Shown: positions 3,356 to 54,116 of the stretch, in pieces
Layout: the number at the start of each line of letters is the position of its first letter
Numbering within the stretch: the first letter of the stretch is position 1
Assembly: GCA_041663185.1 (NCBI GenBank)
Contig: JBAZQY010000001.1
Span: 117,298-181,297, forward strand
DNA length: 64,000 nt
Direction of reading: 5' to 3'
Source: Minisyncoccota bacterium
GTDB lineage: Bacteria > Patescibacteriota > Minisyncoccia > Phycocordibacterales > UBA9973
Program-made: the position numbers and the translations under genes
The notes under the pieces: model-generated
Database searches by the model: none
The model's input: the letters and a program-made list of their open reading frames with translations, nothing else
Told to the model about the DNA's origin: nothing

Positions 3356-4564
3356 TTATACTCCACCGGCGATATTGTAAATCGGCATTAAGATTGATGA
3401 TAATAAGATACCAACTCCAAGCCCCAAAATAACAATCATAACTGGTTCAATTAATCCGACAAGAGTATCGACGGCTTCGTTAACTTCCCGAGCATAAAAA
3501 CGCCCGAGAGTTTTTAGAATATTCCCCAGGGACCCCGTCTCCTCCCCCACTCTTATCATCCCTGGCATAATTGGAGGAACTTCTTTGTGTTTAGAAAAAG
3601 CATCCGACAAAGAACTACCGCCTTTGACGGCTTCAGAAACATCTTTTAATATTCCTTCAAAAACCCGATTGCCAACCACCGCACTCGTCAACTCAATCGA
3701 TCGAACAATCGGGATACCCGATGAAAGCATAGTGTCCATATTGTCCGAAATTCTTGAAAGATAAAGTTTGGTGTAAATACTTTTGAAAACTGGGGTGTTA
3801 ATTTTTAATCGGTCAAAATATAATCGTCCAGCTGGAGATTTGGAATAGTGAATAATATAAACAACAAAGATAACTACTGCAATTAAAATGAAAACTCCGT
3901 AACGGACAAAAAGGTCACTCAACGACATAATAAGTCGAGTGAAAAATGGTATTTCAGCACTTGATTCTCGAATAATAAGCGCTAGTTTTGGAATAATAAA
4001 GACAAACATCATACACATCACGAGGATGAAAACACCGACAACAAAGGCTGGGTAGATCAGAGCATTTTTAGTTTTCGAAGTAAGTTGATATTGACGATCG
4101 AGATAATCGGCCAAATAAGAAAATGTTTGGGTAAGTTTACCCGTCTCTTCTCCAGCCCGAATCATATTGACATAAAAATCAGAGAAAACTACTTTGTGCT
4201 TCGCTAAAGCTCCGGAAATCGAAACTCCTGATCGAATATCTTCTGCAACTTCATTCAAAACTGCCACCAAAGCTTGATTTTCACTATTCTCAGCGAGCAG
4301 AGTGAAAGCTTTCAGGGCTGAAACTTGTGATTCAAAGAGCGTCGACATTTGTCGTGACATGATGACGATGTCTTTCATTTTTATTTTTGATTGCCCAAAG
4401 AAGGAAATATTAAACATCCCCTTTTTGGCTTTTTCTTCATCAATCGATGAGATGAAAAATCCGCGACGCTGAAGAGCAACAATCGCCAAGTCTTTCGAAC
4501 TTGCATCAATTGTCCCAACTTTATTCTCACCAGTACTGGTGATGGCTTTGTAATTGAATAACAT
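3356..4564 (-). CDS. pilC: Type IV pilus inner-membrane platform protein (PilC/GspF family)
   Basis: 402 aa with a duplicated T2SS-F-like architecture and 3 TM segments. It is adjacent to the pilT/pilB ATPases. Confidence 0.8.
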   Translation of the reverse strand: MLFNYKAITSTGENKVGTIDASSKDLAIVALQRRGFFISSIDEEKAKKGMFNISFFGQSKIKMKDIVIMSRQMSTLFESQVSALKAFTLLAENSENQALVAVLNEVAEDIRSGVSISGALAKHKVVFSDFYVNMIRAGEETGKLTQTFSYLADYLDRQYQLTSKTKNALIYPAFVVGVFILVMCMMFVFIIPKLALIIRESSAEIPFFTRLIMSLSDLFVRYGVFILIAVVIFVVYIIHYSKSPAGRLYFDRLKINTPVFKSIYTKLYLSRISDNMDTMLSSGIPIVRSIELTSAVVGNRVFEGILKDVSEAVKGGSSLSDAFSKHKEVPPIMPGMIRVGEETGSLGNILKTLGRFYAREVNEAVDTLVGLIEPVMIVILGLGVGILLSSILMPIYNIAGGV

Positions 4565-4566
4565 AA

Positions 4567-5649
4567 TTAAAACATTTGCTCTAATGATTTAGGATTAATA
4601 GAAAATTCATAAGCACTCTCGAGACTTATTTCTCCCCTCTGCACAAGATCAATCAGACATCGGTTCATATCAACCATCCCTTCATGGGACGAAGTTTCAA
4701 TGACGACATCGATCTCATGGGTTCTTTTTTCACGAATTAAATTGGCAATCGCTTTGTTATTGATCAAAAGTTCATAAGCGGGAATACGCCCACCGGCAAT
4801 CCGCGGAATTAAACGTTGCGAGAATATTCCAAGCAAACTTGAAGCGAGCTGTAAACGAATCTGGCCTTGTTGTTCGGCGGGGAATGAGTCGATAATACGA
4901 TCAATAGTTTGTGAAGCATTGTTGGTATGCAGAGTTGAAAGGACCAAGTGCCCCGTCTCAGCAGCTGTCACCGCAGCGGCGATGGTTGATGGATCACGCA
5001 TTTCTCCAATTAAAATAACATTGGCATCTTCACGGAAAGTTGACTTCAGAGCTTTCAAAAAATCATCCGTATCAATACCAATTTCACGTTGATTGATGAT
5101 TGATTTGTCGGGCTGATAGATGAATTCAATAGGATCTTCGATCGTCATAATGTGTGCTGCGGTTTGTGTATTGATCATATTAATCATCGTAGAGAGGGTT
5201 GTTGATTTACCTTGTCCGACTGGCCCAACAACAAGAAAGAATCCTTGTTTTTTCATAGTGAAATCTTTAAGGATCATCGGTAAATTTAATTCTTCAAATG
5301 ATTTAGCTTTAGGAATTAGCCGGATAGCGATGCAGACGAGCCCACGCTGAAAGAAAGCATTGCCTCGGAGTTGAACTTGACCATCTTTCAAATTACTCGA
5401 GAAATCAACATCCTTGTTTTCGATAAATTTCTTGACTCTTTCGCTGCCAATCAATTCCTCTAAAAGACCAAGCACATCATCTTCAGTCATAACTTTATGG
5501 TTAACCAAAGAGATAAGTTGGCCATTTACTCGGATGTATGGTTTGCGCCCGATACCAAGATGCAAATCTGAGCCATCTTCATTGATCAGGTTTTCAATTA
5601 ATTCATTGAGTAATTTTTTATATTCCATATTAGTTTTTGTGTGCGTCAC
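4567..5649 (-). CDS. pilT: Twitching-motility retraction ATPase PilT
   Basis: Walker A GPVGQGKST. The PilT-type motifs IEDPIE and ...GGRIPAYELLINN... are present. Confidence 0.8.
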   Translation of the reverse strand: MTHTKTNMEYKKLLNELIENLINEDGSDLHLGIGRKPYIRVNGQLISLVNHKVMTEDDVLGLLEELIGSERVKKFIENKDVDFSSNLKDGQVQLRGNAFFQRGLVCIAIRLIPKAKSFEELNLPMILKDFTMKKQGFFLVVGPVGQGKSTTLSTMINMINTQTAAHIMTIEDPIEFIYQPDKSIINQREIGIDTDDFLKALKSTFREDANVILIGEMRDPSTIAAAVTAAETGHLVLSTLHTNNASQTIDRIIDSFPAEQQGQIRLQLASSLLGIFSQRLIPRIAGGRIPAYELLINNKAIANLIREKRTHEIDVVIETSSHEGMVDMNRCLIDLVQRGEISLESAYEFSINPKSLEQMF

Positions 5650-11641: not shown

Positions 11642-12832
11642 ATGAAAAAAAATAAAAACTATTGTCCAGATTGCGGGGGAGCTCAAACTATTCATTTTGT
11701 CGCTTATGTCTCTGTGTTGCTAGGTGCATTATTCGAACCTTGGACAAATTGGATAGGTAAAGTTATTCCTGAATCATCTTTCGATTGGTTGGGACCAACT
11801 TTGACAAAAATTTTAACTTTTTTAAAACTCGGTAAAATAACTTATGAACCAAAAGAAGATGATAGTGGCCGAACTCGAGTTCTTTGGGAAGAAGCCATTA
11901 AAAGAGGTATCAAAATGTATGAGTTTCGTTTATTTGGAATTGGCCACGATATTTTTGTTTCAGAATACAAAGGACATAAAAGATTTTTTGATGTTTTACC
12001 CCGTCCAGATAAATACAATCCCAAGGGTTTGGAATGGATGGATGATAAAGGTAAGATGAAAAAACATTTCAAAAAAGCAGGAATTAAAGTTGCAAATGGT
12101 AGAGTTGTCCACTCTGTCCGAAAGGCTTTAAAAGTTTTTAACTCTCTAGAAAAACCAGTCATTACTAAGCCAAATTTGGGTTCAAGGAGTCGCCATACTA
12201 CAACTCACATAAGTGATAAAAAAGAATTTATTATTGCTTTCAAGAAAGCTCGCCAACTTTCCCCTTGGGTGATGATTGAAGAGGAACTTTCTGGGTATGT
12301 TTTCAGGGGGACATTAATTGGTGGGAAATTAATCGCCGTTCTGCGTCGTGAGCCAGCTTATGTGATCGGTGATGGAATTCATAATGTAAAAGAATTAATT
12401 GAAATTGAAAATAAAAATCCCCTACGCACTGGTCCAATTTTCCATCAATTAAAATTAGACAGTGAAGCAATCAAAGAATTAACTCACTTTGGTCACACGG
12501 AAAATACAATCCCTAAAAAAGATGAAATCATAACTCTCGGACAAAAGACCAGCCGATCTGTCGGCGGAGGAATTACTGACATGACCGATATCGTCCACCC
12601 CGATAATAAAATATTATTGGAAAAAGTCGCAAAAGTTCTCGATGACCCACTGATCGGTGTAGATTTTATCATGGATGATGTCGCTATCTCTTGGCGTGAC
12701 CAACCAAAATGTGGAGTTATCGAATGCAACAGCGCTCCGTTCATTGACCTACACAGCTTCCCTCTTGTCGGCCGTCCTCACAACGTCGCAAGCGCCCTTT
12801 GGGATATTGTTTACCCAGATTCAAAAACGTAA
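11642..12832 (+). CDS. ATP-grasp domain ligase (RimK / cyanophycin-synthetase-like) with an N-terminal Cys motif
   Basis: CPDCGG at the N-terminus. The central and C-terminal regions resemble an ATP-grasp fold (…GKLIAVLRREPAYVIGDG…, …VGGGITDMTDI…). Confidence 0.5.
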   Translation: MKKNKNYCPDCGGAQTIHFVAYVSVLLGALFEPWTNWIGKVIPESSFDWLGPTLTKILTFLKLGKITYEPKEDDSGRTRVLWEEAIKRGIKMYEFRLFGIGHDIFVSEYKGHKRFFDVLPRPDKYNPKGLEWMDDKGKMKKHFKKAGIKVANGRVVHSVRKALKVFNSLEKPVITKPNLGSRSRHTTTHISDKKEFIIAFKKARQLSPWVMIEEELSGYVFRGTLIGGKLIAVLRREPAYVIGDGIHNVKELIEIENKNPLRTGPIFHQLKLDSEAIKELTHFGHTENTIPKKDEIITLGQKTSRSVGGGITDMTDIVHPDNKILLEKVAKVLDDPLIGVDFIMDDVAISWRDQPKCGVIECNSAPFIDLHSFPLVGRPHNVASALWDIVYPDSKT

Positions 12833-12838
12833 AAATAA

Positions 12839-12929
12839 CCAGCATATATAAAAATTTATGAGTAGGTGTGGGCGCGCCGGAGCCCGAAGGGCGTAGAGGG
12901 ATAAGCGAATAAATTTTTATATATACTGG
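12839..12929. repeat. Palindromic repeat element with conserved GC-rich core, copy 1 of 3
   Basis: ccagc-atatataaaaatttat-GAGTAGGTGTGGGCGCGCC...GGGATAAGCGAAT-ataaatttttatatat-actgg. Related copies are at 21805..21905 and 31511..31608. Confidence 0.8.
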
Positions 12930-12960
12930 CTATTTTTTGATTACCAAGAATTATTTTTAT

Positions 12961-21796: not shown

Positions 21797-21804
21797 CAGT
21801 TTTA

Positions 21805-21905
21805 GAAAACCGAGAATATTGAAAAATAAATGAGTGGGTGTGGGCGCGCGCCGAGCGAAGCGAGGTAGGGATAAGCGAGTTTATTTTTTAATATTCTCGG
21901 TTTTC
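21805..21905. repeat. Palindromic repeat element with conserved GC-rich core, copy 2 of 3
   Basis: gaaaaccgagaat-attgaaaaataaa-TGAGTGGGTGTGGGCGCGCGCCGAGCGAAGCGAGGTAGGGATAAGCGAGT-ttattttttaat-attctcggttttc. It is immediately 3' of ftsH. Confidence 0.8.
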
Positions 21906-21906
21906 T

Positions 21907-31510: not shown

Positions 31511-31608
31511 AAAAAACCCAATATAAAAATTTTATGAGTAGGTGTGGGCGCGCGCCGAGCGAAGCGAGGTAGGGATAAGCGAATAAAATTTTTATATTGG
31601 GCTTTTTT
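31511..31608. repeat. Palindromic repeat element with conserved GC-rich core, copy 3 of 3
   Basis: aaaaaaccca-atataaaaattttat-GAGTAGGTGTGGGCGCGCGCCGAGCGAAGCGAGGTAGGGATAAGCGAAT-aaaatttttatat-tgggctttttt. It is 3' of the CYTH gene. Confidence 0.8.
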
Positions 31609-44635: not shown

Positions 44636-44821
44636 TTACCAACTTGATTTTCTTACTCCTGGAAGCATGCCTTCGTTAGCAAGTTCACGGAAACAAATAC
44701 GGCATAGTCCGAAATCTCTCATATAAGCATGTCCACGGCCACAACGAAAACAACGATTTGTTTCTCGTGTGCTAAATTTTGATTTCTTTATGTGTCTTGC
44801 AATAACTGATTTTTTTGCCAT
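44636..44821 (-). CDS. rpsZ: 30S ribosomal protein S14, zinc-binding type Z
   Basis: 61 aa with CxxC...CxxC (CFRCGR...CRIC). Confidence 0.85.
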
Positions 44822-45078
44822 CCCAGTACTAAAATTTTAATATTAATATATATTTTATTTAACCTTTAACCCTTGTACTATGTTTTTTGACGATATCAAA
44901 TAATCAAAAATTTAGTACGGGACAAGTAAAAAAATATTTCGGGCACTACCCCTCATAAGTGTGATATCTCGTTTATTTTCTTAATGGTATTGATTTCTCA
45001 AGGCCATCAAGGAGACAAACGGATCCAAAACCTATGTGCTCCTATACTAGCAAATAGAGGAGAGAGTGTCAAATAAAA

Positions 45079-45110
45079 AAAACCCCGCGATTGTGCGGGG
45101 TCTTTAAGTA
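45079..45110. terminator. Intrinsic terminator downstream of the inserted gene 45129..45749
   Basis: aaaaaaaa-ccccgc-gattgt-gcgggg-tcttt. A minus-strand extended -10 (TGcTAGTAT) for the rpsZ operon follows at ~45040-45060. Confidence 0.6.
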
Positions 45111-45128: not shown

Positions 45129-45749
45129 TTACTCTTTGTATTTATAACCCTCTTCATAATCCTTGAAACCAAGATTCATATTTCTCCAGTTAAACGCTGG
45201 ATAGTAGTCGAGGAGGTTAGGATCTTCCGTACTGGCCAGGTTTTCAAGTCGGTAATCAATCAACCGGCCGGCTTTTTCAGTAAAATCATCAGCATTCCGG
45301 AATTCACGGTACTTGGGAAGATGTGCGCCGGAGGCCCCTTCATAATCAGCAAATACAAACTGGTGCATTATTATCTTAGTTGAATCATTGCTAAGATAGA
45401 AAAAAATGTTTTGGGTTAATTCACCATCGGAATAATAATCATTATCTACATCATACTCATAAGCGAGTCCACTTGTTGTTTGATGACCTCCAAGTTCAAG
45501 CTCGAGTAAATTCCATTCAGTGAATCGGCGATGGATATCGCGAACGTTTATTACTTCTGTCGAGTCCGCAACATAATAATTACTATCATAAAGGACCTGT
45601 GCCCTGGAGATGATTTCTTCCATGGCATTAGCCAACTCTTTTTTACTGGATTGTGGGTTGTTTCCGAACATAATCCACCAGAACAATAATCCGGCTACAA
45701 TACAGGCTACAATACAAGCAATTAATCCTACAAATGTTGTTGTTTTCAT
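45129..45749 (-). CDS. Hypothetical membrane-anchored protein inserted within the ribosomal-protein cluster
   Basis: N-terminal TM (TTFVGLIACIVACIVAGLLFWWIMF). It has its own promoter and leader at 45750..45915 and its own terminator. Confidence 0.5.
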   Translation of the reverse strand: MKTTTFVGLIACIVACIVAGLLFWWIMFGNNPQSSKKELANAMEEIISRAQVLYDSNYYVADSTEVINVRDIHRRFTEWNLLELELGGHQTTSGLAYEYDVDNDYYSDGELTQNIFFYLSNDSTKIIMHQFVFADYEGASGAHLPKYREFRNADDFTEKAGRLIDYRLENLASTEDPNLLDYYPAFNWRNMNLGFKDYEEGYKYKE

Positions 45750-45915
45750 AGTGTTTTGTTTTTTAAAATGAGTGAATAGTGAATTACCTTAAGCTACTAA
45801 ATGTCTAATAATTCAAGGCAATTCACTATTTCTCCTCAAAACAAAAATTATGAAAATTTTCAAAGAACTAAACACTCCTTATAGTATAGCATAATTGGGT
45901 AAAAAAGTCAAGAGA
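45750..45915 (-). promoter_or_regulatory. Conserved promoter + ~130-nt structured 5' leader, copy 1
   Basis: Minus strand: TTGACT-N17-TATACT, then a leader with hairpin gaaatagtgaattgcc...ggtaattcactattc. It is 85-90% identical to 46529..46700. Confidence 0.6.
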
Positions 45916-46003
45916 TTTAACCTGACAAAATAAGGACTTTTTGCAATAAAAAAGACCTGCCAGAAATTCTGACAGGCCTTGAAGTTTGGGATTATTTGCA
46001 ATA

Positions 46004-46528
46004 TTATTTATCCCACCATGGCAAATATTCGAAAAAAATCGTTTGATATCCTCTTCTTCCTTCGACTTTTACGATAATGTCACCAACCGACCATTGATTA
46101 TTTTTAAAACAAATATACGGTGTTGTTTTTTCGCCAGAGTCATAGTCGATACCCAAAAATTGGTCATAATTATAACCGATAATCCGGTTGTAATCGAGGA
46201 AAAGCGACCTATGTTTCATGGCTATAAGTGATTTCAGATCGCTTTTCTTGGGCAAGGTGTAGTTCATATACTCAGCAAATTTTAATACCAACCTTTGGCT
46301 GGTATGCTTTTTGAATGAGTATATTATACAGGTCCTGAACGTTCCACCTTGACCAATATTTGGTGTAATCTCCGATATACTATCTCCGGAAAGGAAAACG
46401 GGTTTTTCCCAGTAAAAATGTCGGTTGAATTTACGTTCAATCCGTGTCTGCTGAGCGCTGGCTGATGATGTGGCAACAATCATCATGATGATGATTGCAA
46501 AGAATGAGAATAATCTAACATTTTTCAT
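46004..46528 (-). CDS. Hypothetical secreted protein inserted within the ribosomal-protein cluster
   Basis: Start at MKNVRLFSFFAIIIMMIVATSSASA (signal peptide). The listed ORF start at 46642 extends into the conserved leader. No similarity to the neighbouring inserted protein. Confidence 0.5.
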   Translation of the reverse strand: MKNVRLFSFFAIIIMMIVATSSASAQQTRIERKFNRHFYWEKPVFLSGDSISEITPNIGQGGTFRTCIIYSFKKHTSQRLVLKFAEYMNYTLPKKSDLKSLIAMKHRSLFLDYNRIIGYNYDQFLGIDYDSGEKTTPYICFKNNQWSVGDIIVKVEGRRGYQTIFFEYLPWWDK

Positions 46529-46700
46529 AATAATATTTGTTTTTAAATTGTGAGTGAATAGTGAATTACCTTGAGCTATTAAATGTCTAATAATCCAGGG
46601 CAATTCACTATTCTTTAAAACAAATATTATGAAAATTTTCAAAGAACTACATACTACTTATAGTATAGCATGATTAGGTGTAAAAGTCAATAGATAAAAC
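46529..46700 (-). promoter_or_regulatory. Conserved promoter + structured 5' leader, copy 2
   Basis: Minus strand: TTGACT-N17-TATACT with a near-identical leader hairpin to 45750..45915. Confidence 0.6.
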
Positions 46701-46727
46701 CCTTTAATTGCAAGCTTATTAATGAAA

Positions 46728-46765
46728 TAGCCCCGCCGACAGCTGTCGGCGGGGCTATTTCATTT
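46728..46765. terminator. Strong intrinsic terminator downstream of rplE
   Basis: aaatagccccgccgacagc|tgtcggcggggctattt is a 17-bp GC-rich stem followed by T-runs. Confidence 0.7.
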
Positions 46766-47305
46766 TTATTTTTTAAATGGAACACCTATCATTTGGAAAA
46801 AATCAGTCGCTTCGTCTTTTGTTTTGGCAGTTGTAACAATTGTCACCGCAAGACCAAAGACATCTTTCAGTTCTTCATCTCCTGTTTCAGGGAAAATTGT
46901 GTGCTCTTTAATACTCATTGTTAAGTTTCCGATATTATCAACAATTTTTTTATCAATTCCACGAAAATCTTTCGTACGAGGAATAGCAACATTGATTAGT
47001 TTATCTAAAAATCCATACATCCGAGCTCCACGAAGAGTAACCATTACTCCAACCGGGTCTCCAAGACGAATCTTAAAACTAGCAATCGATTTCTTGGCAC
47101 TCTTGGTTGCGGGCTTTTGTCCAGTAATCTTTGTAAGGCGATCAATAACAAGATTATTATAATCTTTATTGCGCTTAATTCCCGAACCTGTTCCACTCGA
47201 AATCACCACCTTCACAAGTCGAGGTGAAGCCATAACATTTTTGTATCCATATTTGGCTTTAAGCGAACTATATGATTTTTTTTCTTTTTGTCTAATTGTT
47301 TCCAT
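46766..47305 (-). CDS. rplE: 50S ribosomal protein L5
   Basis: ...ASPRLVKVVISSGTGSG... conserved L5 core. Confidence 0.85.
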   Translation of the reverse strand: METIRQKEKKSYSSLKAKYGYKNVMASPRLVKVVISSGTGSGIKRNKDYNNLVIDRLTKITGQKPATKSAKKSIASFKIRLGDPVGVMVTLRGARMYGFLDKLINVAIPRTKDFRGIDKKIVDNIGNLTMSIKEHTIFPETGDEELKDVFGLAVTIVTTAKTKDEATDFFQMIGVPFKK

Positions 47306-50018: not shown

Positions 50019-50360
50019 TTATTTCTTCGATTCGGTAGCAGCTTTGGCTGACTTGGCTGCGGATACTTCGGCTTCTTTTTTCTTCATCTCAAGTTCTTTC
50101 TGCATTTTACCTCCGTGTCTGACGAACTTGCGGGTTAGTGAGAATTCTCCCAATCTGTGCCCAACCATATCTTCACTTATTAAAACTTCAACATGGGTTT
50201 TACCATTATGAACACCAAAAACAAATCCTACCATTTCTGGAGAAATCTGACATGCTCGTGACCAGGTTTTAATCATCCCTGTTTCTAGGGGCTTTTTCCC
50301 AGCTATCTTTTTCAAAAGACGAGCATCGACGTATGGACCTTTTTTGAGTGATCTTGTCAT
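50019..50360 (-). CDS. rpsS: 30S ribosomal protein S19 (with Lys/Ala-rich C-terminal extension)
   Basis: [14 protein letters not shown].....G... conserved S19 core. Confidence 0.9.
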
Positions 50361-50548
50361 CCCGTTAGAGATAGGAAGTCCTTAGACTTCCGTGTATTGT
50401 TAAGTATGGTTGATAATATAAAACTTATATTTGATTATTAACTCCGTGAGAATATAACATGCATATCTCTAACGGGATCATAACAATATAAATAAGCTCA
50501 ACTGAGCTCGTTCGTCCATACTATCAAATATAAATATAAAGTCAATGT

Positions 50549-50941
50549 TTATAAAAATCCAATTATTTTGGGTAAAAAAATTATAAGCCCTATAAAAGCA
50601 GCTGTAGCGGCAGAAATTAAAACCGCTCCTGACGCAACATCTTTTGTATCGCGAGCATACGGATGATAATTGGGGCTTGTTAGATCAATATCAATTTCAA
50701 TAGCGGTATTAAGCGCTTCGGTTATTAATACAAGCCCAATAGCTAAAATGAGAAAAAGCCATTCTATAAGTGACACTTTTAATATAAAACCAAATAAGAT
50801 AACAAATATGGTAATGATGAGATGGACCCACAAGTTATGAGTACTTTTTACCAATATACCAATTCCACGAAATGCATGATTAAAACTTTTAGCACGAGCC
50901 ACAATTGAAAATCTTTTTTTCTCTGATAGTTTTTGTTCCAT
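50549..50941 (-). CDS. dgkA: Diacylglycerol kinase / undecaprenol kinase family (DgkA-like) membrane protein, inserted between rpsS and rplB
   Basis: Start at MEQKLSEKKRFSIVARAKSFNHAFRGI.... There are three TM helices and a conserved EALNTAIE motif. Confidence 0.6.
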   Translation of the reverse strand: MEQKLSEKKRFSIVARAKSFNHAFRGIGILVKSTHNLWVHLIITIFVILFGFILKVSLIEWLFLILAIGLVLITEALNTAIEIDIDLTSPNYHPYARDTKDVASGAVLISAATAAFIGLIIFLPKIIGFL

Positions 50942-53729: not shown

Positions 53730-54083
53730 TTACATCATTTTCACATCAATATCGACACCGGATGGCAGAGATAGATTTGTGAGTGCTTCGATAGTTTTTG
53801 GATTTGGATTCAAAATATCGATAACACGTTTATGGATTCTTATTTCAAATTGTTCTCGAGCATTTTTAAACACAAACGATGCTCGGTTTACTGTATACTT
53901 TTTTATTTCTGTTGGAAGTGGAATTGGCCCAACGATTTTTGCATCATAGCGAAGAGCGGTATCAATAATCTGCTTGACGGATGCGTCAAGAATCTTATTC
54001 TCGTAAGCTCTTACTCGAATACGAAGTTGGACAACGACATCCTCCTTTCCTTTTTTTGATTTAACCACTTTCTTTGTTGTCAT
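53730..54083 (-). CDS. rpsJ: 30S ribosomal protein S10
   Basis: ...LRIRVRAYENKILD.S...I.....GPIPLPT... conserved S10 core. Confidence 0.9.
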   Translation of the reverse strand: MTTKKVVKSKKGKEDVVVQLRIRVRAYENKILDASVKQIIDTALRYDAKIVGPIPLPTEIKKYTVNRASFVFKNAREQFEIRIHKRVIDILNPNPKTIEALTNLSLPSGVDIDVKMM

Positions 54084-54116
54084 AGTTTGTAATTAAAAGA
54101 ACGGAATAAATTTACC

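Follow-up and report, generated by a model that had tools for sequence, protein, structure and literature searches.

In a 64,000-nt stretch of the genome of a Minisyncoccota bacterium (contig JBAZQY010000001.1; the window, here and below, is this whole stretch), we found that two short genes of unrelated sequence, open reading frames ORF174 and ORF206, lie between the ribosomal-protein genes rplE and rpsZ and are preceded by almost the same promoter and leader. Each leader carries an invariant boxA-like 12-mer, GTTCTTTGAAAA, close to the inferred transcription start and then folds into one large helical domain that takes in the start codon of the gene. The leader sequence is conserved, its structure belongs to the RNA strand, the design recurs in other leaders and the module has been exchanged between genes. 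The duplicated unit may be a reusable leader module of the Nus-factor type (boxA plus a helix closing over the AUG), a reading to which we give a probability of about 50%.

Two promoter-leader units between rplE and rpsZ

The S10-spc ribosomal-protein cluster is encoded on the minus strand of the window, where the order is rplE, terminator, unit A, ORF174, terminator, unit B, ORF206, terminator, a third promoter and rpsZ. The features are listed below; L122 is a related locus that is described further on.

46766-47305, minus strand: rplE
46721..46764, minus strand: rplE terminator, a perfect 22+22 palindrome with a GC-rich core (inverted-repeat and terminator scan)
46701-46522, minus strand: unit A, ~175 bp
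46662..46690, minus strand: unit A promoter, TTGACT-N17-TATACT with a TG extended -10 (promoter scan)
near 46655, minus strand: unit A transcription start, inferred
46636..46647, minus strand: unit A boxA-like GTTCTTTGAAAA, at ~+9 to +20 (motif scan and A/B alignment)
46522..46635, minus strand: unit A helical domain (RNA folding, inverted repeats and A/B/L122 alignment)
46588-46613 and 46556-46581, minus strand: arms of the unit A inner hairpin, ~24-26 bp
46526-46528, minus strand: ORF174 start codon, inside the unit A outer helix
46004..46528, minus strand: ORF174, 174 amino acids, signal peptide (ASA/QQ), no Pfam match
45952..45980, minus strand: ORF174 intrinsic terminator (terminator scan)
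45922-45743, minus strand: unit B, ~175 bp
45883..45911, minus strand: unit B promoter, TTGACT-N17-TATACT with a TG extended -10 (promoter scan)
45857..45868, minus strand: unit B boxA-like GTTCTTTGAAAA (motif scan)
45743..45856, minus strand: unit B helical domain (RNA folding, inverted repeats and alignment)
45806-45830 and 45775-45799, minus strand: arms of the unit B inner hairpin, ~24-26 bp
45747-45749, minus strand: ORF206 start codon, inside the unit B outer helix
45129..45749, minus strand: ORF206, 206 amino acids, N-terminal transmembrane helix, no Pfam family
45078..45105, minus strand: ORF206 intrinsic terminator (terminator scan)
45044-45072, minus strand: third promoter, TTGACA-N17-TAGTAT, which restarts the operon at rpsZ
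44636-44821, minus strand: rpsZ

ORF174 and ORF206 are each monocistronic, with their own promoter and their own terminator, and the rplE terminator insulates unit A from the ribosomal-protein transcript upstream. Units A and B share 86-88% identity over a stretch that opens ~10 nt before the -35 box and runs through ATGAAAA, beyond which the similarity ends; the leader measures ~127 nt from the inferred transcription start to the ATG, and both units share the inverted repeat AATAGTGAATTGCC / GGTAATTCACTATT. A 22-nt segment common to A and B occurs exactly twice in 64 kb (0.02 expected). An initial annotation of this DNA had described a ribosomal-protein operon interrupted after rplE by two transcription units, each with its own terminator, a near-consensus promoter (TTGACT-N17-TATACT) and an 85-90% identical leader of ~130 nt that contains a long hairpin, and our alignment, gene order and folding agree with that description throughout. 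What it overlooked is the outer helix over the start codon and the invariant GTTCTTTGAAAA near the transcription start. Its suggestion that more copies be sought had a divided outcome: searches with the hairpin arm, the 22-mer and a relaxed boxA found none in the 64-kb window, and a third copy was found in the related locus L122. A boxA match with 1 mismatch at 50309-50320 is inside the rpsS coding sequence and is not a further copy. We also set aside a small plus-strand ORF (MKIFKEL...) and an ATG-TAG mini-ORF in unit A, neither of which is conserved in other members, as by-products of the 88% DNA identity.

Structure, recurrence and exchange of the leader

When the leaders were folded on the gene strand, we obtained free energies of -37.5 and -41.2 kcal/mol, with z = -6.0 and -6.5 as compared to dinucleotide shuffles. 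Each leader is one large helical domain of ~40 bp that begins straight after the boxA-like 12-mer, with the inner hairpin (~24-26 bp) sitting on an AU-rich outer helix. The outer helix, formed by UUUUCAUAAUAUUUGUUUU and AAAACAAAUAUUAUUAUGAAAA, takes in the start codon; in the predicted fold, UUUUCAU pairs with the start region AUGAAAA. The initiation region is A-rich and has no Shine-Dalgarno sequence, and the nearby ribosomal-protein genes likewise have none. In both A and B the inner helix is near-continuous over 25-26 bp, at or above the size of at least ~20 bp that RNase III requires, and helices of 20-28 bp are of the right size to be predicted RNase III substrates.

Because the hairpins of the wider family share no sequence, we used folding statistics for each leader and pairwise or three-way alignments rather than a family-wide alignment or covariance model. 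Of 19 leaders, 15 fold more stably on the gene strand than on the antisense strand (mean -34.6 vs -27.5 kcal/mol, Wilcoxon p ~0.001), a bias that tolerance of G-U pairs would produce. Pairing in the inner hairpin reaches 98.6% in the A/B/L122 alignment, as compared to 38-50% in slid controls, and 7 of the 24 pairs vary, of which 6 are still paired, one through a compensatory change from C-G to U-A; the shuffle control for this covariation, which the initial annotation had recommended looking for, is marginal. Compensatory changes are also present in the leader pairs L004/L086, L023/L077 and L070/L083, and homologous leader pairs show 13% substitution in paired columns vs 20% in unpaired ones. 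Taken together, these alignments and folds indicate that the leader structure acts at the RNA level and is under selection, and the fold and strand evidence sustains the view of the conserved noncoding unit as a structured, cis-acting RNA leader on the gene strand.

The strand evidence also bears on the possibility that the palindrome works in DNA, as an operator for a dimeric repressor. Such an operator would account for 14-nt inverted arms downstream of a strong promoter and for the small palindrome GAAAATTTTC; however, the arms are 31 nt apart, their sequences are wholly different among family members, and substitutions keep G-U pairs on the gene strand only. We regard an operator as most improbable. 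A ligand-sensing riboswitch, a terminator-type attenuator or an RNA thermometer would likewise fit a long structured leader in which an AU-rich closing helix lies over the AUG, and melting is physically possible. However, the Rfam scan that had been proposed (Rfam 15; whole window at the gathering score, locus at E <= 10) matched no family and returned terminator-like and miRNA-like noise only, and the leaders are simple long helices whose sequences are unrelated across the family, with no conserved loops or junctions, so the earlier suggestion of a riboswitch is not supported. The suggested attenuator fares no better: the AU-rich stem is followed by CACUCACAAUUUAAAAAC and not by a U-tract, so the hairpin is not an intrinsic terminator, and the terminator scan finds none in the leaders. 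A thermometer would have to melt at physiological temperatures, for which the inner helix of ~25 bp is much too stable. We consider this group of sensors very unlikely.

To find other members, we searched with a pattern consisting of the extended -10 region and the motif; the -35 box is not part of the pattern. The scan gave one match among GTDB genomes, L007, a Paceibacterota metagenome-assembled genome (MAG), and 107 metagenome stretches, and a scan of viral contigs gave 3 matches that we assume to be chance. A -35 box within 1 mismatch of TTGACA is present in 40 of the 93 unique pattern matches, and of the matches with such a box 59% have z < -4 over the next 110 nt, as compared to 2% of those without (Mann-Whitney p ~1e-7). 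In 20 curated leaders, the helix starts a median of 1.5 nt past the motif and ends a median of 3 nt before the ATG, with a median paired content of 36 bp per helix, and A makes up 57% and G 6% of the 20 nt that precede the ATG. Of 21 leaders, 17 have a quasi-continuous helix of 20-28 bp, and 16 of 20 leaders precede proteins to which a crude hydrophobicity rule assigns a hydrophobic signal or anchor at the N-terminus. The members share a plan of strong extended -10 promoter, boxA-like motif, hairpin of unrelated sequence and A-rich start region. Those that are demonstrably Paceibacteria are the MAG of the window, L007 and the L5-linked loci (L116-L118, L122); the taxonomy of the Joint Genome Institute (JGI) contigs is unverified.

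A search of the neighbourhoods of close RplE homologues gave L122 (RplE 93% identical), in which the third copy of the leader stands after rplE and before a homologue of ORF174. Between the window and L122, nucleotide identity is 78-80% in the leader and 85% in rplE, and falls to 64% in the ORF174 coding sequence (34% in the protein) and 60% in the terminator spacer. The A and B leaders are closer to each other (88%) than either is to the L122 leader (78-80%). Because the A and B leaders are the closest pair, ORF174 matches the L122 homologue and ORF206 matches nothing of ORF174, unit B is best explained as a leader-only copy of, or conversion from, unit A, and the comparison indicates that the module was copied from the ORF174 gene to its unrelated neighbour ORF206.

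The initial annotation had named homology of the two proteins as the finding that would overturn its proposal, and the proteins do appear unrelated. ORF174 and ORF206 show no similarity by BLASTP (E 0.68), a probability of 4%, which reflects only the signal peptide, when a profile is compared with a sequence, and a probability of 0.9% when profiles are compared by hhalign after relatives had been found, with shallow profiles of 4 sequences each. The homologues of ORF174 are that in L122 (34% identity, E 2e-23), P0126 and P0127; these 3 relatives came from an exhaustive phmmer search, and a word-index search with ORF174 found only ORF174 itself. The homologues of ORF206 are P0003-P0005. Neither protein has a match in Pfam. 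The AlphaFold2 model of ORF206 has a predicted local distance difference test (pLDDT) score of 66 and no match in the PDB by Foldseek at E <= 0.001, with only weak pilin-like noise; the ORF174 model from a single sequence has a pLDDT of 41 and is unusable.

Exchange is also seen away from the window. In L004, a homologue of ORF206 (51% identical) is preceded by a leader of the same plan with a hairpin of unrelated sequence, and the next gene there is likewise; the L004 leader recurs at 77% identity before an unrelated 303-amino-acid protein in L086. In L007 and L057, the leaders are 87.5% identical and the proteins 32%. These comparisons indicate that conservation is stronger in the leaders than in the genes behind them and that leaders pass from one gene family to another, and the idea of a modular promoter-leader cassette serving different genes, already raised in the initial annotation, is upheld by the unrelated proteins behind A and B and by the mismatches of L004 and L086.

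An ordinary tandem duplication of a whole gene, with coding parts that have diverged beyond recognition, would explain why the units are adjacent and in the same orientation, and proteins evolving far faster than leaders, as in L007 and L057, would be in its favor. Against it, the A and B leaders are the closest pair and yet ORF174 matches the L122 homologue and not ORF206; ORF206 has its 51% homologue elsewhere, with another leader and in another genomic context; and the two terminators are unrelated. It has hardly any probability in our view. MITEs and Correia elements are miniature inverted-repeat elements, and a mobile element of this kind with an outward promoter could have landed twice, leaving the hairpin as a by-product of its terminal repeats. 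The unit does have nested inverted repeats, one leader stands before unrelated genes, and the rplE-rpsZ gap is a variable hot spot. However, the 64 kb contain just two copies, side by side, the unit is bounded by the -35 box and the start codon rather than by repeat ends, no target-site duplication is visible, the hairpin differs in sequence per lineage while keeping position and length, and G-U pairs favor the RNA strand. In addition, the orthologous L122 copy is at the same locus before the orthologous gene, as vertical inheritance predicts. We judge a mobile element to be improbable.

The rplE-rpsZ gap is a variable slot in relatives and holds the following.

L116: a 111-amino-acid ORF
L117: a 196-amino-acid gene with a short leader
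L118: a promoter, GTCCTTTGATAT, a 28-bp hairpin and a 150-amino-acid gene
L122: the ORF174 homologue alone

The rplB-rpsS junction (window 50549-50941, minus strand; L117 4638-6894; L118 3147-6924) is another slot with variable insertions, where a diacylglycerol kinase gene is always present, joined in relatives by an extracytoplasmic function (ECF)-type sigma factor or several ORFs.

Two other leaders of the operon have helices at start codons. The rpsZ leader (window 44822-45072, minus strand; relatives L117 11255-11470 and L118 11225-11425) stands behind its own promoter, keeps the blocks GGAGACATAGGTTT..GATCCGTTTGTCTCC and TTAAGAAAATAAACGAGATATC in relatives, and has a long-range helix that reaches the rpsZ ATG (z -2.1) with no Rfam match; it is a candidate ribosomal-protein autoregulatory leader. 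The rpsS leader (window 50352-50545, minus strand) follows the diacylglycerol kinase insertion and has a promoter, TTGACT-N16-TAGTAT, and a perfect 15-nt inverted repeat, ATCCCGTTAGAGATA / TATCTCTAACGGGAT, whose 3' arm overlaps the rpsS start codon; it folds at -41.1 kcal/mol (z -5.9). It seems to be a general feature of the operon's internal promoters that a helix closes over the start codon.

Elsewhere in the window, an intergenic element of ~105 nt is present in three copies (12831-12937, 21804-21906 and 31511-31607), each with an AT-rich closing stem of 25-29 bp that differs by copy and encloses a GC-rich 49-nt core, ATGAGTAGGTGTGGGCGCGCGCCGAGCGAAGCGAGGTAGGGATAAGCGA; it has no Rfam match and looks like a small structured RNA or a repeat family. 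Upstream of tuf (L001 1-975 / L117 1-170) there is a protein of 1387-1635 amino acids with matches to CARDB and thrombospondin type-1 repeats, probably a surface adhesin.

The boxA-like motif and a possible role of Nus factors

GTTCTTTGAAAA is invariant in A and B, and lies between the inferred transcription start and the helix; in each copy, 14 nt separate it from a near-consensus extended -10 hexamer upstream. At 10 of 11 positions it fits GYTCTTTAANA, the gammaproteobacterial boxA consensus that we took from Baniulyte et al. (PMC5725501), and other family members fit it at 11 of 11. Members that were found without use of the motif keep the core GTYCTTTRA (GTTCTTTGAGAT in L122, GTCCTTTGATAT in L118 and GTCCTTTAAAAC in L004b). 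By its sequence, GTTCTTTGAAAA looks like a candidate boxA, the element bound by NusB and S10; NusB-NusE recognises 8 nt at the core of a boxA.

The motif is also present where a boxA would be expected. The contig L042 has a 16S rRNA gene at 3604-5086 with GCTCTTTAAAAA at 3441-3452 in its leader, where it abuts stretches of complementarity to the 16S trailer (94% over 16 nt, 86% over 28 nt); rRNA leaders canonically have a boxA and then the leader-trailer helix (PMC10250234). The regions involved are 3441-3509 and 5184-5265, and the 16S gene is followed by a protein gene rather than by 23S, so the rRNA genes are unlinked there. The same contig has a promoter and GTTCTTTTAAAA before a signal-peptide (secreted-protein) gene. 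The window contains a further example before rpsJ:

54091..54102, minus strand: boxA-like GTTCTTTTAATT, 7-8 nt upstream of the rpsJ (S10 = NusE) start codon, in the short tuf-rpsJ spacer

This copy is conserved in the relative L117 (1621-1632), and rpsJ belongs to a reported class of boxA targets (PMC5725501). By analogy with what has been proposed for other bacteria, it may reflect autoregulation by NusE. In L079 (5383-5979, minus strand) and L084 (708-1269, minus strand), the 5' end of a ROOL RNA (RF03087) is at a promoter-proximal GTTCTTTGAAAA, which suggests a boxA at the 5' end of this non-coding RNA. The GTTCTTTGAAAA string was also found in papers on the detection of Mycoplasma and phytoplasma, both Mollicutes. 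In those organisms it is located in the boxA region of the 16S-23S spacer. A literature search for boxA in Patescibacteria found no paper linking the two.

If GTTCTTTGAAAA is a boxA, a strong extended -10 sigma-70 promoter followed by a boxA-type GUUCUUUGAAAA at the 5' end of the transcript would make a self-contained expression module. As it does in rRNA leaders, at lambda nut sites and in the suhB leader, the boxA would load NusB-S10 (NusE) onto the polymerase during elongation. The helix would then pair the sequence after boxA with the A-rich initiation region and the AUG, bringing boxA beside the start codon and sequestering the AUG, and translation initiation would depend on opening or processing of the helix, for which the 20-28 bp helix could serve as an RNase III site. 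The Nus-modified polymerase would keep the untranslated leader and the gene from premature termination. Nus binding and RNase III cleavage are inferred, and the net effect on expression could be either activation, through antitermination or stabilisation, or repression.

Several points weigh against this reading. Position 8 is A in the gammaproteobacterial consensus but G in the window copies. In most members the motif was required by the search pattern, so that its conservation there is circular, and ~5 examples are independent of the pattern. The comparison with an rRNA leader rests on one contig, L042, of unverified taxonomy. In tblastn searches of the window and the fetched loci with E. 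coli queries, NusB, NusG, Rho and RNase III had no match; the S10 control worked, with S10 (NusE) at window 53736-54029. Three members, L034, L095 and L112, have the promoter and motif with a short leader that lacks the hairpin and places the motif 18-23 nt before the ATG; because of them the hairpin is not obligatory. With three sequences, the shuffle control of the A/B/L122 covariation is marginal (29-41 of 500 shuffles reach the observed value). It is also not evident why a monocistronic gene of ~600 nt would need processive antitermination.

These points give some room to a structured leader that works without Nus factors. The ompA and aprE leaders carry hairpins that act as 5' stabilisers, and the hairpin here could in the same general way stabilise the 5' end of abundant secreted-protein mRNAs or throttle their translation, with GTTCTTTGAAAA as a lineage-specific element near the promoter or early in the transcript: an A-rich enhancer of translation, a pausing site or a site bound by another factor. 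Nus factors are not needed to account for the structure, the strand asymmetry and the recurrence, no nusB gene was seen in the window or the loci, and the motif is unusually near the transcription start and, in the short leaders, at a distance from the ATG that fits an initiation element. On the other side, the motif equals the boxA consensus, and it stands in a 16S leader, before rpsJ and at the 5' end of ROOL, where one would expect a boxA and not a translation enhancer. We hold a leader without Nus factors to be rather unlikely, with a real share of probability nonetheless.

We also put forward a broader proposal, which we consider less likely than not: in Paceibacteria, and perhaps more widely in the candidate phyla radiation (CPR), a dedicated class of exchangeable 'mini pre-rRNA-like' mRNA leaders, in which boxA precedes a helix of RNase III size that brings it onto the start codon, and which are swapped between unrelated genes by recombination, might put a fast-evolving secreted and surface proteome under the control of Nus factors and ribosome biogenesis. 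Gene regulation in the CPR (Patescibacteria), of which few members are cultured, is almost unexplored, and a recurrent leader that is more conserved than its genes would rank among the first cis-regulatory RNA designs for this group. The targets are small secreted and membrane proteins, likely part of the surface by which episymbionts interact with their hosts. If the boxA is functional, control by Nus factors would reach beyond rRNA, phage, suhB and CRISPR (clustered regularly interspaced short palindromic repeat) arrays to a class of mRNAs. The units also offer a concrete case of promoter-leader modules moving among unrelated genes, and a compact, strong expression cassette that could be used for tests in heterologous hosts.

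Comparison with known systems

The leaders resemble those of rRNA operons, in which the 5' strand of a long helix comes after a boxA-type motif close to the 5' end (PMC10250234; PMC3177189). The leader-trailer helix of rRNA has 25-40 bp in Enterobacteriaceae and is an RNase III site (PMC10250234; PMC3177189). In contrast, the helix described here closes on a short hairpin loop and not on a 1.5-kb rRNA, its 3' strand carries a start codon, the transcript is an mRNA for a small secreted protein, and no boxB or boxC is recognised.

The order of promoter, boxA, highly structured leader and start codon is that of lambda pL-nutL-N. In lambda, RNase III cleavage of the N-leader hairpin relieves N repression. 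The repression itself is exerted by Nus factors at nutL on N translation, across a structured spacer (PMC5725501). Here, however, neither an N-like protein nor a small boxB-type hairpin whose loop is conserved was seen, many genes carry the leader and they are cellular, and the leader is shorter.

A boxA near the start of a protein gene is known from the 5' untranslated regions (UTRs) of suhB, rpsJ and other genes, in a study of gammaproteobacteria that looked for boxA within 50 nt of the start, had no long hairpin and foresaw few targets per genome (PMC5725501). The present leaders are from a CPR bacterium, have boxA and AUG at the base of one helix of ~95 nt, and precede genes for secreted or membrane proteins. 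The boxA of CRISPR arrays (Stringer et al. 2020, PMC7665894) likewise acts outside rRNA, against Rho termination, and across phyla; those transcripts are long and untranslated, whereas ours are short translated mRNAs.

The leaders can also be compared with mobile repeats as a class. Correia elements and other MITEs are short, lie between genes and carry long inverted repeats; they can supply promoters and, in a 5' UTR, form RNase III-sensitive hairpins. The promoter-leader unit differs from them in that no dispersed identical copies were found in the 64 kb, its boundaries match a functional module, and its sequence differs per lineage and is inherited vertically with the gene. The use of boxA before protein-coding genes and before CRISPR arrays is already known (PMC5725501, PMC7665894), whereas the combination of boxA with a helix over the start codon, in modular form, at secreted-protein genes and in a CPR lineage, appears undescribed.

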